Origin: a virus
DNA length: 64,000 nt
IMG/VR virus record: IMGVR_UViG_3300025151_000023
Location: 21,743-85,742 of that record
Strand: one strand, 5' to 3'
Shown here: one piece after another, positions 18,021 through 20,225 of the stretch
Layout of the letters: each line of letters opens with the position of its first letter
How positions within the stretch are numbered: the first letter of the stretch is position 1
The notes under the pieces: model-generated
What the model was told of the DNA's origin: nothing
What the model saw: the letters and a program-made list of their open reading frames with translations, nothing else
The model's database searches: none
Translations under genes and position numbers: made by a program

Positions 18021-18705
18021 TTAGTGTGGCTTCGTATTCATCTTTTGCGTCACGCCATTCTTGTGCGTAAGGAACATCTTGCATGTGTGCAAACCAAGGT
18101 CCACCTTCTGTATAATGTAACATTTTAGGTGAACCATCTTCTGGTGCTGTATACCAATCAGTAAGCCAGTTCCATTCATGCGATATTTCGCCTATTTCAT
18201 GATCAGCTAACCACATAAATCTATGGTGCCATAAACCTGTATTTGTGTTAACTGCATTTAGATCAATTAATTTATTAGATGGATGTTCACAATTCCATAA
18301 CACACAAGATGACCAGTTTTTTCTTGGATATTGCAGTTGTGCTTGACCATCCATTTTAGTTCCTTCCTTAGGAGTATAATCATGTTTAGCTACCATAACT
18401 GCATAATTGTCATTTGCCTGATTAAACAAATCCTTTAGATCTGCACGACACAAAAAGTCGCAATCGATGAACAACGCCCAACCTTTGTAACCAGTTAGTA
18501 TAGGCACCATAAATCTACTGAATGTAAATTCTGTTGATGCTTTTTTGTCCACATCTCTAGTGTACATTCCTAGTTCCTTGAGAGTGTTTAATTTAAGTGG
18601 ATATACTTGAACGTCTGGATTGTGTTTCTTTATGGTGTACTTGGCCACTTGATAGGCAATGTCTTCTCTTGAATCCCATCCTACAAATACTTTCATTTCT
18701 GTCAT
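18013..18705 (-). CDS. GT8-like glycosyltransferase
   Basis: VFVGWDSRE, STEFTFSRF, FIDCDF, YPRKNWSS and HYTEGGPW motifs. Start 18705 overlaps the upstream stop (ATGA). Confidence 0.8.
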   Translation of the reverse strand: MTEMKVFVGWDSREDIAYQVAKYTIKKHNPDVQVYPLKLNTLKELGMYTRDVDKKASTEFTFSRFMVPILTGYKGWALFIDCDFLCRADLKDLFNQANDNYAVMVAKHDYTPKEGTKMDGQAQLQYPRKNWSSCVLWNCEHPSNKLIDLNAVNTNTGLWHHRFMWLADHEIGEISHEWNWLTDWYTAPEDGSPKMLHYTEGGPWFAHMQDVPYAQEWRDAKDEYEATLNV

Positions 18706-19280
18706 AGCTTGTTTATATAGTGATAAATTTGTTGCCAATTGTCTACTTTGGTGATTCTGCTGTCGTCTTTGTACGCATTGTATGGATGTTTAATTAAAAT
18801 AGTATCTAATCCCATATCTGCTCCCAGTACTGCATTGCGCCATTTGTCTTCAATCCACAAGTATCCTGAGTCTTTGTAAGGTTTCAAGCTGTCGTCTTTA
18901 GAGTAACCTGTGCCTATACATATTACCTCGGAAAAAGCATCACCAAATAGTGTTTGTAAATTTTCTTCTCTCAGTTTGTGTGCATATGTATCTTCATGCA
19001 TTGATGTTATTGCTATAAATTTCCAACCTTCTTGACTAAGTTGTGGAATCACTGTTTGTGCATCACGGAACGGTTCTAAATGTTTTATCCATGCAGACAT
19101 ATTAAAATGCCAAATCAAGTCATCGATATCTTTGCCCATTTCAACCCATCGCTGTCGTGCATGACTTTGTGTTGAGTCCTTAATCTCCATGTTAAAATAT
19201 TTTTTAGCAAATTTTGTAAATCCGCGATCCCAATCAACACAAACTCCATCAATGTCAGTGAGTATTATTTTTTCTTTCAT
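18702..19280 (-). CDS. HAD-superfamily phosphatase / 5'(3')-deoxyribonucleotidase-like
   Basis: LTDIDGV (DxD), AITS and WIEDK motifs. Confidence 0.75.
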   Translation of the reverse strand: MKEKIILTDIDGVCVDWDRGFTKFAKKYFNMEIKDSTQSHARQRWVEMGKDIDDLIWHFNMSAWIKHLEPFRDAQTVIPQLSQEGWKFIAITSMHEDTYAHKLREENLQTLFGDAFSEVICIGTGYSKDDSLKPYKDSGYLWIEDKWRNAVLGADMGLDTILIKHPYNAYKDDSRITKVDNWQQIYHYINKL

Positions 19281-19371
19281 CTTTTCCTTTCACATAATAT
19301 CCAATCATAACACCAGATATAAAAACTGTAATAATGGCCAACAAGTGCCACAGTAATCCAAAACTTATCAT
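19255..19371 (-). CDS. 38-aa single-TM small protein
   Basis: Manual translation MISFGLLWHLLAIITVFISGVMIGYYVKGKDERKNNTH; GAGG SD. Confidence 0.55.
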   Translation of the reverse strand: MISFGLLWHLLAIITVFISGVMIGYYVKGKDERKNNTH

Positions 19372-19384
19372 ATTCCTCTTCCTT

Positions 19385-19434
19385 TGTGGGGGCGGGGGCC
19401 TGGTAAGAGGCCCCGTACTTACCTAACTCACCCC
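19385..19434 (-). ncRNA. Small GC-rich structured RNA element immediately 3' of the tRNA-Leu-like gene
   Basis: GGGGTG/CGCCCC outer stem, GGGGCCT/AGGCCCC hairpin, and loop CTTACC complementary to upstream GGTAAG. Confidence 0.5.
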
Positions 19435-19437
19435 TAA

Positions 19438-19527
19438 TGGTACGGTCTACAGGACTTGAACCTGTATGCTTTGTGGCTATACCCGCTCTAGACGGCTATA
19501 CGTGTCTACCAATTCCACCAAGACCGC
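19438..19527 (-). tRNA. tRNA-Leu-like (TAG) with abnormally long anticodon arm
   Basis: GCGGTCT/AGACCGT acceptor, A73, encoded CCA, D-loop GG, T arm ACAGG-TTCAAGT-CCTGT, class II variable arm. Anticodon arm is TATAGCCG-TCTAGAG-CGGGTATA. Confidence 0.7.
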
Positions 19528-19551
19528 ATATTCATTATATATGGAAAACTT

Positions 19552-19875
19552 TTACTTGTCATTAAAATATTTTTCCAATTTTCCAGATTCGTCTCTATGT
19601 TTATTATCAGGATCAAGCGAATCTTTTTGTTCTGTAATTACTGGCCATTTCTCTGACCAAATTCTATTGAATTCTATCCATTTAGCACCTTCTTCATCAA
19701 CATCGGATCTAATTGCATCTTCTGGGCATTCAGGTTCACATACTCCGCAGTCAATACATTCATCAGGATTGATTACTAACATATTTTCACCTTCGTAAAA
19801 GCAGTCGACAGGACACACATTTACACAATCGGTATGTTTACACATAATACATTTGTCGTTTACAGTATATGTCAT
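19552..19875 (-). CDS. fdxA: 7Fe ferredoxin (FdxA type)
   Basis: [21 protein letters not shown]...[12 protein letters not shown]. Confidence 0.92.
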
Positions 19876-19888
19876 TTTATAATATATA

Positions 19889-19964
<76 letters not shown>

Positions 19965-19965
19965 T

Positions 19966-20041
19966 TGGTGGAGGATACAAGAGTCGAACTTGCGACCTCC
20001 TGAATGCAAATCAGGCGCTCTCCCAACTGAGCTAATCCCCC
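19966..20041 (-). tRNA. tRNA-Ala(TGC)
   Basis: 76-nt cloverleaf with G3:U70, anticodon TGC and encoded CCA. Confidence 0.95.
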
Positions 20042-20051
20042 GAGTGTTTTA

Positions 20052-20079
20052 ATTATACATTCAGTAAAATATATGTCAA
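20052..20079 (-). promoter_or_regulatory. sigma70-type promoter for the tRNA/ferredoxin cluster
   Basis: TTGACA-N16-TATAAT. Confidence 0.7.
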
Positions 20080-20225
20080 ATGTAAGAAATTCACTAAAAT
20101 CCATGGGTACAAACACCAGCCCTGGTGTAAAAGATTGCAAATTTGACGCCATTATGCAAGTCTTTTTTTGTGCAAAAAATCTATTCTGTGTTTGGGATGC
20201 ACGAATCTGCCATAAATATGCTGTA

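Follow-up and report, generated by a model that had tools for sequence, protein, structure and literature searches.

A phage tRNA-Leu-type RNA with an extended anticodon arm and its family of homologues

Described tRNA-like RNAs and the gene of the window

Stable tRNA-like RNAs have been annotated in phages for decades without a function, known examples being RNA1 and RNA2 of phage T5 and the species 1 and species 2 RNAs of phage T4. The nev-tRNAs of nematodes are leucine-bodied tRNAs with non-leucine anticodons. In tmRNA, the tRNA-like domain provides a chargeable top half without a decoding anticodon. Finally, a minimalist tRNA-Leu of E. coli has been engineered in the laboratory. According to PMC9976931, leucylation requires no more than the top half, A73 and the D/T-loop contacts (Larkin et al. 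2002, cited therein), an E. coli tRNA-Leu deprived of its anticodon and variable arms remains a substrate for leucylation, and editing by LeuRS requires the anticodon arm.

The window (the whole stretch of DNA that was analysed, 64,000 nt) contains at 19438-19527 a tRNA-Leu-type gene, to which we refer as a 'chassis' RNA gene. Its carrier is a large marine phage. Among annotated RNAs, its nearest relative is RNA1 of phage T5. RNA1 and RNA2 (AY543070) are annotated as misc_RNA, 'tRNA-like stable RNA with unknown functions', and like the window gene they are phage-encoded and lie inside a tRNA cluster. RNA1 shares the leucine-type D-loop string with the window gene and also has a T arm, the two enclosing a non-tRNA centre. 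As in RNA1-type RNAs, a class without formal definition, the leucine-type acceptor, D and T elements are kept in the window gene while the centre is not normal and differs between relatives. RNA1 is, however, 144 nt long, a large insert replaces its anticodon and variable arms, no CCA is encoded in its annotated span, and it reaches only 16.8 bits with the family model R1, whereas the window RNA keeps an anticodon-like 7-nt loop. The T4 species 1 and 2 RNAs (rnaC and rnaD) are small stable RNAs that end the T4 tRNA cluster, and the 3' end of rnaC consists of a T-arm-like hairpin and an acceptor-like strand. They differ from the window RNA in their much larger bodies (139 and 119 nt), in which no leucine-type D arm is seen. 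Compared with tmRNA, the window RNA has a full D stem, G3-C70 instead of the alanine G3.U70, and no tag reading frame; its identity as a tmRNA was rejected on the D stem and G3-C70, and no tmRNA is called in the window or the record.

Anatomy of the gene and its flanks

The gene and its associated elements are the following.

19438-19527, minus strand: tRNA-Leu-type chassis RNA gene, 90 nt, CCA encoded (ARAGORN, Rfam tRNA model, family model R1)
19521-19527, minus strand: 5' strand of the acceptor stem, pairing with 19442-19448; 7 bp, with a G1.U72 wobble
19502-19518, minus strand: D arm with a leucine-type D loop (A14, A15, GG, TAGA)
19478-19500, minus strand: extended anticodon arm, 23 nt; 8-bp stem of 19493-19500 with 19478-19485, loop 19486-19492
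19466-19477, minus strand: variable region, 12 nt (2-bp stem, 6-nt loop), last base T48; homologue of the variable hairpin found in each family member
19449-19465, minus strand: T arm, ACAGG-TTCAAGT-CCTGT (ARAGORN; family pair counts)
19438-19448, minus strand: 3' strand of the acceptor stem (19442-19448), A73 (19441) and CCA (19438-19440), read from the sequence and by ARAGORN
19534-19562, minus strand: sigma-70-like promoter, ATGACA-17 nt-TATAAT (consensus scan, 11/12 matches; a consensus match only)
19389-19434, minus strand: nested pseudoknot, 3 nt after CCA; P1 19429-19434/19389-19394, P2 hairpin 19409-19414/19395-19400
19255-19383, minus strand: purine-rich ribosome-binding stretch and 38-aa hydrophobic ORF (ATG at 19371), overlapping the start of the HAD-like gene 18702-19280

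ARAGORN, suggested as a check in a preliminary description made from the sequence alone, calls a tRNA-Leu(tag) at 19438-19527 and places the anticodon at position 38, about 35 being usual. With the Rfam tRNA model RF00005 the gene scores 38.0 bits (gathering score 29, E 2.8e-6) in a 901-nt search of 19300-20200, in an alignment that leaves the anticodon arm unaligned; it is absent from the list of the whole-window (64-kb) Rfam gathering run. The family model R1 gives 86.5 bits. The preliminary description had the acceptor stem, D arm and T arm intact and A73 and CCA present, which ARAGORN and reading of the sequence bear out. Like a canonical tRNA-Leu, the gene has A73, a 3' CCA and a 7-bp acceptor stem, and its elbow bases match those of canonical tRNA-Leu (U8, A14, A15-U48, G18G19, A20a and, in the T loop, U54, U55, C56 and A58). 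The D stem comprises 3 bp and G13.A22, and the D-arm string is also present in more than 100 phage tRNA-Leu genes. All E. coli LeuRS determinants named in PMC9976931 (A73, A15-U48, G18G19, A20a and the D/T-loop pairs) are present. A class II variable arm had been described as well; the 12-nt region is there, but it is a weak class II arm because its stem has only 2 bp, and the ARAGORN drawing shows it unpaired.

All four departures from a canonical tRNA (8 bp, G:G, C33 and a closable U.G) are located in the anticodon arm, with none elsewhere in the gene. The arm, TATAGCCG-TCTAGAG-CGGGTATA, forms seven of its eight stem pairs, pair 5 being G:G. Its loop has TAG at the anticodon positions, A37, and C at position 33 in place of U33; in RNAfold the first and last loop bases also pair (U.G), leaving a 5-nt loop. 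A canonical arm has a 5-bp stem and a 7-nt loop with U33 and a purine at position 37; to our knowledge 5-bp stems and U33 are near-universal in tRNAs, with 6 bp in tRNA-Sec. The extra pairs of the window arm are the outer three A-T pairs, which the Rfam alignment of a homologue with an ACG anticodon scores as insertions. Seven of eight pairs in the same register are reached by 1772 of 200,000 mononucleotide shuffles of the 23-nt arm. The octamer GTATAGCC is present twice, at 19494-19501 and 19475-19482, and four of its eight letters follow from a TATA palindrome in the arm stem. The 23-nt arm with its 8-bp stem and single G:G mismatch, the C replacing U33 and the repeated octamer had all been pointed out before and are confirmed in the sequence.

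No tRNA stem-loop within two mismatches of the window's inner arm is present in any fetched locus. Allowing one mismatch, the inner arm occurs in 3 of 401 sampled genomes of one phylum, in no case within ~1.5 kb of a tRNA gene called by ARAGORN; a reversed control pattern gives ~18 matches in the same scan. A resemblance of the inner arm to tRNA D arms (4/17 mismatches) was treated as chance, as 36 such matches occur per ~3 Mb. An intron-containing tRNA, with a group I intron or bulge-helix-bulge insert in its anticodon loop, was rejected on the grounds that the only extra letters are 3 + 3 nt, which are paired at the top of the stem, and that the loop has 7 nt. The 7/5 acceptor/T helices, the 8-bp anticodon stem and the TAG triplet led to rejection of a tRNA-Sec, which would have 8/5 or 9/4 helices, a 6-bp anticodon stem and UCA. 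An amber suppressor, with the loop read as CTA, would presuppose a genome in which TAG is a sense codon and was likewise dismissed: with code 11, 95% of the record lies within ORFs, and TAG ends 12 of 100 genes in a rough set.

The -10 box of the promoter ends 7 nt before tRNA position 1, and the promoter overlaps the 3' end of a ferredoxin ORF. TATAAT-like boxes lie ~7 nt upstream in homologues without a linked tmRNA as well. In the pseudoknot, the loop CTTACC (19402-19407) pairs with GGTAAG (19418-19423); no Rfam family matches it, the sole one listed, HOTAIR_2 at 15 bits, being noise. Between CCA and the 38-aa ORF no terminator-like site is found on the minus strand.

A family with variable anticodon arms

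The gene is not unique; by homology it is one of a family, of which 33 copies, corresponding to 15 distinct sequences, were found in marine viral and metagenome contigs. What all 33 have in common are the acceptor, D and T arms and, downstream of CCA, a covarying pseudoknot; the differences are confined to the anticodon arm. This may be a 5-bp Leu(UAA/CAA) arm of the canonical kind, one of 8 bp, as in the window and in a type with the anticodon ACG, or a mini-hairpin of 2-4 bp capped by UUCG, GAGA, a triloop or similar. The last is the only form of the arm in 15 of the copies (8 distinct sequences).

The acceptor, D and T helices are paired in 225 of 225 cells (100%) across the 15 distinct sequences. 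In these helices 23 cells have changed on both sides, compared with a shuffled mean of 7.0 (reached by 0 of 500 shuffles), and both-sided changes are seen at three of the five T-stem pairs. The acceptor stem has 7/7 pairs in all 15 sequences, an invariance partly produced by the search patterns used. U8, A14, A15, GG, A20a, U48, the T loop, A73 and CCA recur in 15/15 sequences, with a single G in the D loop of one as the only exception.

The canonical members, of the L312 type with Leu(CAA) and the L202 type with Leu(UAA), are identical to the window gene over their first 27 nt. They have A73, CCA, U48 and a homologous variable hairpin in common with it, the T arm of L312 is the same, and L317-L319 and the window have a glycosyltransferase-like gene downstream in common. 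In contrast to the window's 8-bp stem with G:G, C33 and an Rfam score of 38 bits, these members have a 5-bp stem, U33 and scores of 54-57 bits. The shortened members follow the same logic as the engineered minimalist tRNA-Leu, from which they differ in that the latter is a laboratory construct. Because orthologous copies without an anticodon loop keep the rest of the tRNA intact, the locus has a function for which decoding is dispensable. The series shows that such RNAs derive in place from the phage's own tRNA-Leu genes, and that the top half, A73-CCA and the trailing pseudoknot are kept throughout.

Eight loci, among which three sequences can be distinguished, carry the ACG type. In 42 of 47 genome matches, nearly all of them in uncultured Alphaproteobacteria, the inner 17 nt of its arm are letter for letter the anticodon stem-loop of a tRNA-Arg(ACG) gene; three A-U pairs form the pedestal that joins this stem-loop to the leucine body. 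As this exact copy indicates, the anticodon arm can carry selected content. The window and ACG arms differ on both sides at 8/8 pairs and yet keep 7/8 and 8/8 pairs, respectively; this comparison was made with a fixed-register script, MAFFT having failed to align the 8-bp arms in structural register. The preliminary description had called for relatives to be searched for conservation and covariation of the extended stem, and the 8-bp stem indeed recurs, with a wholly different sequence, in these 8 related contigs. The extended arm is thus real, and its structure is conserved. No third 8-bp type was found with a search pattern for long centres. Like the nev-tRNAs, the ACG type (Arg anticodon) and L341, a leucine-type body with a CGA anticodon, combine leucine bodies with foreign anticodons; the window triplet, in contrast, is a leucine anticodon, and the phage forms add the 3-bp pedestal. 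Synteny of the HAD-like gene is seen at only 2 loci, one with the CGA leucine-type body directly upstream and the other with a canonical tRNA-Leu(TAG) 2 kb away.

The sequence of the gene recurs in other assemblies. A 5126-nt contig from DNA run X1 has no differences over 19300-19753, and a 5290-nt contig from DNA run X5, of a different study, has no listed difference within the gene; one of these runs may be the source sample. Being unchanged in DNA contigs of two studies, the gene is not an assembly error. The earlier description had envisaged relatives with a normal 5-bp arm, beside which the window copy would be a unique duplication or assembly error; some such relatives do exist, and the identity of the X1 and X5 contigs excludes the second part. 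A 224-nt contig from an RNA library, derived from a variant strain, has three differences (at G26, the first loop base and one pseudoknot-linker base), none of which touches the arm stem. This contig, longer than the gene and with a depth of 2.3, is the single piece of RNA evidence for the gene and comes from a library that may contain DNA. Window-specific cover in RNA run X19 is confined to 19376-19599, and RNA run X18 reaches no further than the tRNA-Thr/Ala region, with flanks unlike those of the window; contig depth in the RNA runs is unsuited to ranking expression.

These data bear on whether the gene is a recently inactivated tRNA-Leu heading for loss, its long arm having arisen by local duplication, as the repeated octamer might suggest. 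The direct repeat, C33, the G:G mismatch and the loop base that differs in the variant strain agree with such a history, as does the restricted occurrence of the gene: among 80 ferredoxin-linked loci of other phages none carries a tRNA-like gene at this place, since no tRNA adjoins the ferredoxin gene according to ARAGORN and none is detected with family model R1 under default filters (a tRNA-Ser lies several hundred nt upstream in 2 of the 80). However, the gene has no defects outside the arm, is identical in the contigs of two studies and retains its stem in a third strain. In addition, the second 8-bp type has all 8 pairs changed on both sides, and the shortened homologues keep every other helix and are capped by stable tetraloops. 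Inactivation is therefore very improbable, and among the three options of the preliminary description the decaying gene fits worst.

The flanks of the family members are relevant to another alternative. The pseudoknot follows all 15 distinct sequences, with five different fully complementary loop pairings among them; in an 11-row alignment 5/6 pairs of P2 have changed on both sides with 100% of the cells paired, and 92.7% of the P1 cells are paired. In most cases an AGGAG-like stretch and an ATG come next, none being evident within 80 nt for five (L180, L202, L312, L322 and L326/L337). In 8 of the 15, all of them non-canonical forms, the gene is preceded by a two-piece tmRNA gene whose end lies 3-4 or 26 nt upstream. 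RNase P requires only the top half and CCA, and tRNA punctuation has analogues in mascRNA, from the 3' end of MALAT1, and in the E. coli tufB operon. Such an arrangement could mean that the gene is a processing or stabilising element acting in cis only: RNase P and 3' trimming enzymes would cut its ends, freeing the upstream RNA and letting the downstream mRNA begin with a protective pseudoknot, and the excised piece would be functionless. Several observations make this unlikely. The near-consensus promoter of the window would initiate transcripts at about position 1, so that no 5' cut is needed there. The exact copy of a tRNA-Arg stem-loop and an 8-bp arm with paired substitutions are unnecessary for processing, and HTVC008M has the tmRNA but lacks the tRNA-like gene.

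Outside this set, no family member was found among cultured phages (INPHARED, August 2025), where the matches were limited to tRNA-Leu fragments of 30-35 nt and the HTVC008M tmRNA, and a 26-nt 5' string gave 0 matches in GTDB genomes. A viral search with the protein encoded upstream of the tmRNA returned 3 loci, 2 of which were already in the set. Within the available parts of the literature on extended-stem phage tRNAs and pelagiphage tRNA-like RNAs (PMC9004378, PMC9976931, PMC10690425, PMC11441406 and PMC4105747) no account of the family was found; members may be catalogued among the tRNAs and tmRNAs listed with PMC9004378 or the csRNAs listed with PMC10690425.

Possible roles of the RNA

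A decoding role of the RNA, present or recent, is plausible, because the Leu anticodon TAG fits the Leu body, CTA and CTG make up 26% of the Leu codons (rough gene set of the record), the neighbouring tRNA-Thr and tRNA-Ala genes of the cluster are ordinary, and the related contig L342 has a canonical tRNA-Leu(TAG) followed by a pseudoknot similar to that of the window. The gene could then be a working tRNA-Leu(UAG) that reads CUA and CUG for the phage, its long altered arm being tolerated or giving shelter from arm-cutting host nucleases; its acceptance by ARAGORN and the Rfam tRNA model agrees with this. Yet the 8-bp stem, C33, the G:G mismatch and the loop closable to 5 nt occur in combination, the anticodon loop is missing from homologues at this locus, and the other 8-bp type presents an Arg anticodon on a Leu body. 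For these reasons we consider a working tRNA improbable.

The arm is 3 bp too long, and the relatives range from a normal arm to a bare hairpin; therefore the ability to read codons has most likely been lost and the RNA may have another job. The reading that we prefer, tentatively and with a probability of roughly 0.45, is that the product of 19438-19527 is a tRNA-Leu 'chassis' RNA which undergoes processing, can probably be leucylated and does not decode. What the data show directly is the anatomy, the structural conservation, the family series and the identity across independent assemblies; that the RNA is processed, leucylated, kept off the ribosome and active in trans is our inference. Transcription would start at its own sigma-70-like promoter and run through the pseudoknot into the downstream genes. 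With its intact acceptor stem, elbow, A73 and CCA, the RNA is expected to adopt an L-shaped fold, to be handled by tRNA-processing enzymes and probably to be charged by the host LeuRS, which ignores the anticodon arm. The helix longer by 3 bp, the missing U33 and the loop shrinkable to 5 nt would misplace and turn the TAG triplet, making codon pairing impossible as long as the acceptor end is held by EF-Tu or the peptidyl-transferase centre. The idea of a decoding block by three additional base pairs comes from considering tRNA geometry on the ribosome; such a block is not shown in the available parts of the literature on extended anticodon stems. The selected part of the molecule would be the top half with a stable helical arm, and the RNA may act in trans on host factors that handle tRNA, as ligand, sponge or bait, resembling the stable tRNA-like RNAs of phage T5.

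No match to L/F-transferase, FemAB, the CCA-adding enzyme or T4 Rnl1 (PF03588, PF02388, PF01743 and PF09511) occurs in the 85.7-kb record, which is 23% complete; the PF09511 profile is matchless in control genomes as well, and the partner-protein result is uninformative on absence.

A more specific form of action in trans, which we regard as quite unlikely, is that the chassis RNAs are a modular bait platform, in which a stem-loop copied from the host and placed on a 3-bp pedestal is kept off the ribosome and sequesters or diverts a host factor that reads anticodon loops. The leucine body would suit this purpose in being processable, stable and chargeable without an anticodon, and the target might be a modification enzyme or an anticodon nuclease belonging to a defence system. 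With its exact tRNA-Arg(ACG) stem-loop, the ACG type would be the clean case, and the window copy might be a bait derived from Leu(UAG), possibly drifting. Since the loop drifts in the natural variant, a bait role of the window copy is without direct support. A decoy had also been proposed in the preliminary description; indirect support for it comes from the ACG-type relatives only, and none from the arm of the window gene.

The family forms a natural series at one homologous locus, from a working tRNA-Leu through a loop on a 3-bp pedestal to a bare tetraloop hairpin. The tRNA-Arg stem-loop on a leucine body in the ACG type suggests a concrete hypothesis, either a bait or deliberate Arg-to-Leu mistranslation; if this RNA decodes, Leu would be inserted at Arg codons. 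Should the chassis RNAs prove to be charged without decoding, they would represent natural carriers of leucyl groups outside translation.

Architecture of the tRNA-like gene

ARAGORN calls the gene as a 90-nt tRNA-Leu(tag) with the anticodon placed at position 38, and the sequence reading agrees with the preliminary description that acceptor stem, A73, CCA, D arm and T arm are intact. Its parts are as follows.

Parts of the tRNA-like gene, window 19438-19527 (- strand)
Acceptor stem: 7 pairs, pair 1 being G.U
D arm: leucine-type loop, as usual
Anticodon arm: 23 nt, TATAGCCG-TCTAGAG-CGGGTATA, immediately 3' of G26
Variable region: 12 nt
T arm: ACAGG-TTCAAGT-CCTGT
3' end: discriminator A, CCA encoded

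The 8-bp anticodon stem forms seven of its eight pairs, with G:G at pair 5, and the loop has C in place of U33, both as first described. RNAfold closes a U.G pair between the first and last loop bases, leaving a 5-base loop. Upon shuffling of the 23-nt arm, 7/8 pairs in the same register were obtained in 1772 of 200000 shuffles. The repeat of GTATAGCC is genuine, half of it being explained by the TATA palindrome in the stem. The preliminary observation is thus confirmed except for its class II variable arm: the region is present but weak, with a stem of 2 bp. A local search with the Rfam tRNA model gives 38.0 bits (threshold 29), with the arm not alignable, while a gathering run over the whole window lists only the adjoining tRNA-Thr and tRNA-Ala and not this gene.

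Public DNA runs from 14 studies contain the stretch. The contig from run X1 (5126 nt) shows no differences over 19300-19753. The contig from X5, a run of a different study (5290 nt), shows 24 differences, and those listed are all within the ferredoxin gene, none in the tRNA-like gene. The two contigs exclude the assembly error considered at first; X1 or X5 may be the source sample. In an X5 contig 91 nt are missing inside the ferredoxin gene (window 19575-19667), which may reflect a variant or another organism's gene. A contig from the RNA library X19 (224 nt, depth 2.3) spans 19376-19599 with three differences, which affect G26, the opening base of the loop and the linker within the pseudoknot that follows; the stems are free of them. 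Both structural constraint and transcription are weakly hinted at by this contig. RNA libraries may contain DNA, and contigs do not reveal transcript ends.

Conservation and arm forms of the family

A search pattern of D arm and T loop retrieved at least 118 phage tRNA-Leu-type genes; nearly all centres of the listed matches measure 34-38 nt, and that of the window 39 nt. One fetched locus, L180, combines the window's acceptor stem with a 29-nt centre. The 26-nt 5' end as search string gave 4 viral and 9 metagenome stretches, and a 3'-end pattern 23 viral stretches. Including the window, the family comprises 33 copies and 15 distinct sequences, among which the same environmental genome may be filed twice. 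All 15 share the acceptor stem, D arm, U48, T loop, A73 and CCA, the invariance of the acceptor stem being partly due to the search patterns used. In their alignment, pairing in the acceptor, D and T helices is complete (225/225 cells); both sides have changed at three of five T-stem pairs and one of three D-stem pairs, and the number of such cells (23) compares with a shuffled mean of 7.0, none of 500 shuffles being as high. The centre invariably forms two hairpins, of which the second is the variable arm, homologous throughout, and the first occupies the anticodon-arm position.

Forms of the first hairpin
Canonical 5-bp stem, 7-nt loop, UAA or CAA, U33, A37: 2 sequences, 8 copies
5-bp stem, UAA, C at position 37 (L322): 1 sequence, 1 copy
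Window form, 8-bp stem and 7-nt loop: 1 sequence, 1 copy
ACG type, 8-bp stem and 7-nt loop: 3 sequences, 8 copies
2-4-bp stem capped by UUCG, GAGA, tetraloop, triloop or 6-nt loop: 8 sequences, 15 copies

The window copy is therefore not unique, since its 8-bp layout recurs in the ACG type (3 sequences, 8 copies); relatives with a normal arm do exist, as two sequences with the canonical 5-bp stem, but others have 8-bp or 2-4-bp stems. Among 193 distinct leucine-type sequences from a first set of fetched loci, the 8-7-8 layout occurs only in the window and two ACG-type sequences, and an additional long-centre pattern found no third type. Between the window and the ACG type both sides have changed at 8/8 pairs, with 7 and 8 pairs retained. 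That the gene is decaying, one of the options in the preliminary description, is very improbable: decay would not retain all the other helices, replace the arm by stable tetraloops or preserve a helix of 8 bp while both partners of all eight pairs are exchanged. Selection therefore acts on the top half and on the presence of a closed helix in the anticodon-arm position, and decoding is not required.

Several other leucine-type genes were encountered. L109 (~926-976, - strand) has a leucine-type body with a 22-nt centre, without anticodon arm and CCA; L111:1712-1803, L129, L137 and L159 have 41-nt centres and are called tRNA-??? with a 2-letter anticodon by ARAGORN. The unrelated viral contigs L217, L303 and L306 carry leucine-type tRNA-like genes in which a stem of 7 or 9 bp takes the place of the anticodon arm and the loop is unlike an anticodon loop.

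ACG-type genes (L200:488-581, L201:3160-3252, L313, L316, L321, L323, L325, L333) are labelled tRNA-Arg(acg), position 38, by ARAGORN. The inner 17 nt of their arm match exactly a genuine tRNA-Arg(ACG) anticodon stem-loop in 42 of 47 matches in a species-representative genome set, nearly all from uncultured Alphaproteobacteria; four of the others are unrelated and one lies within a partial tRNA. This stem-loop is raised on three extra A-U pairs in a leucine body and, judged from these matches, the family arm is not always arbitrary in sequence. For the window's inner arm, the fetched loci contain no counterpart at ≤2 mismatches, and 401 sampled genomes of one phylum gave three 1-mismatch matches versus ~18 for the reversed control; no tRNA gene called by ARAGORN lies within ~1.5 kb of any of the three. 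A locus syntenic with the window, L341, has a tRNA-like gene, pseudoknot and HAD-like gene (61% identity); in its gene (L341:2366-2452) the body is of leucine type, as seen in A73, G1.U72 and the D loop, the anticodon is CGA and base 37 is U. L342 holds a canonical tRNA-Leu(TAG). The alphaproteobacterial MAG contigs L378 and L394 contain half tRNA-Arg(ACG) genes, broken at or after the anticodon arm in a pattern like that of integration sites of mobile elements.

Promoter, trailing pseudoknot and upstream tmRNA

The viral record (85.7 kb, rated 23% complete) encodes a UvsX with 60-67% identity to those of cultured jumbo phages, Atu_ph07, Phosso, XaC1, GAP32 and CBB among others. The order on the - strand is tRNA-Ala, tRNA-Thr, ferredoxin, tRNA-like gene, pseudoknot, 38-aa ORF, HAD-like gene and glycan genes. 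A sigma-70-like promoter, ATGACA-17-TATAAT (11/12 matches), ends 7 nt 5' of tRNA-like position 1, and no terminator-like site was found 3' of the gene on the - strand; the RNA is therefore probably the start of a transcript extending into the downstream genes. Two further features were noted.

Other features of the neighbourhood
19255-19371 (- strand): hydrophobic 38-aa ORF directly 3' of the pseudoknot, overlapping the HAD-like gene start
20052-20079 (- strand): TTGACA-16-TATAAT, perfect sigma-70 consensus (12/12), 11 nt 5' of tRNA-Ala

All family members carry a nested pseudoknot 3 nt 3' of CCA, in which an outer helix encloses a hairpin whose loop pairs with the strand preceding it. The loop pairing takes five forms, each with full complementarity (GGTAAG/CTTACC, TATAGG/CCTATA, TTTAGG/CCTAAA, GTTACG/CGTAAC, AGTAAG/CTTACT); in the inner hairpin both partners have changed at 5/6 pairs, and 100% of its cells are paired. 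No Rfam family fits it. In most members a ribosome-binding stretch and then a start codon follow.

In 8/15 distinct sequences, all eight of non-canonical form, an alpha-type two-piece tmRNA gene lies upstream, ending 3-4 or 26 nt away. Rfam alpha_tmRNA scores are 79-103 bits (66 bits for L316), and ARAGORN gives the tag ANFNQYALAA (L200, L201, L313).

Pseudoknots and tmRNA genes
Window 19389-19434 (- strand): pseudoknot
L180, L200, L201, L202, L321, L322, L324, L327, L328, L331, L332: pseudoknot 3' of CCA
L200:608-882, L201:3279-3554, L327:6188-6463, L328:5563-5856: tmRNA genes
L331:2938-3254, L332:5261-5533, L316:231-505: tmRNA genes

Two-piece tmRNAs of such type are reported from pelagimyophage-like phages (PMC9004378). 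HTVC008M has a tmRNA and lacks the tRNA-like gene. The tmRNA-bearing contigs also contain manA RNA motifs (RF01745) at L332:7575-7781 (61 bits) and L327:2606-2811 (56 bits).

The arrangement of pseudoknot and tmRNA supports a putative role in transcript processing, and it would also suit an element acting purely in cis as punctuation. Since the window's gene has its own promoter and the content of the ACG arm appears selected, processing would not be the whole story, and a purely cis-acting element is unlikely.

Possible role away from the ribosome

All elements of the E. coli LeuRS recognition list in PMC9976931 are present: A73, A15-U48, G18G19, A20a and the D/T-loop pairs. Leucylation has been reported to persist in tRNA-Leu lacking the anticodon and variable arms, and LeuRS editing to require the anticodon arm (PMC9976931). 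From these determinants and the charging of armless tRNA-Leu, leucylation of the RNA by LeuRS is plausible. Continued decoding as tRNA-Leu(UAG) would find use, CTA and CTG making up 26% of Leu codons, but it is improbable: with the fixed geometry of tRNA on the ribosome, three extra pairs together with the loss of U33 would probably preclude decoding. No paper testing the effect of extra anticodon-stem pairs or U33 loss on decoding was found in the literature searched.

The interpretation first proposed is partly supported. The best reading, tentative at a probability of about 0.45, is a tRNA-Leu body with a non-decoding arm: the RNA would be processed in the manner of a tRNA and probably charged with leucine, its overlong and altered arm would exclude it from the ribosome, and its top half and displayed helix would act upon host tRNA-handling factors.

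Among annotated RNAs, T5 RNA1 and RNA2, labelled 'tRNA-like stable RNA with unknown functions', come closest, as judged by annotation and sequence inspection. RNA1 has the D-loop string of the family and a T arm, with a large insert between them, but reaches only 16.8 bits with the family model. T4 rnaC and rnaD, compared likewise, also close a tRNA cluster. The article texts searched do not describe the family. New are the intermediate form, in which a 3-bp pedestal carries a loop resembling that of an anticodon arm, the full series of arm forms at a single homologous locus, the ACG sister type with its exact tRNA-Arg graft and the covarying pseudoknot trailing the gene. The pedestal looks like a means of displaying a loop without decoding; if the ACG-type RNA did decode, leucine would be inserted at arginine codons.
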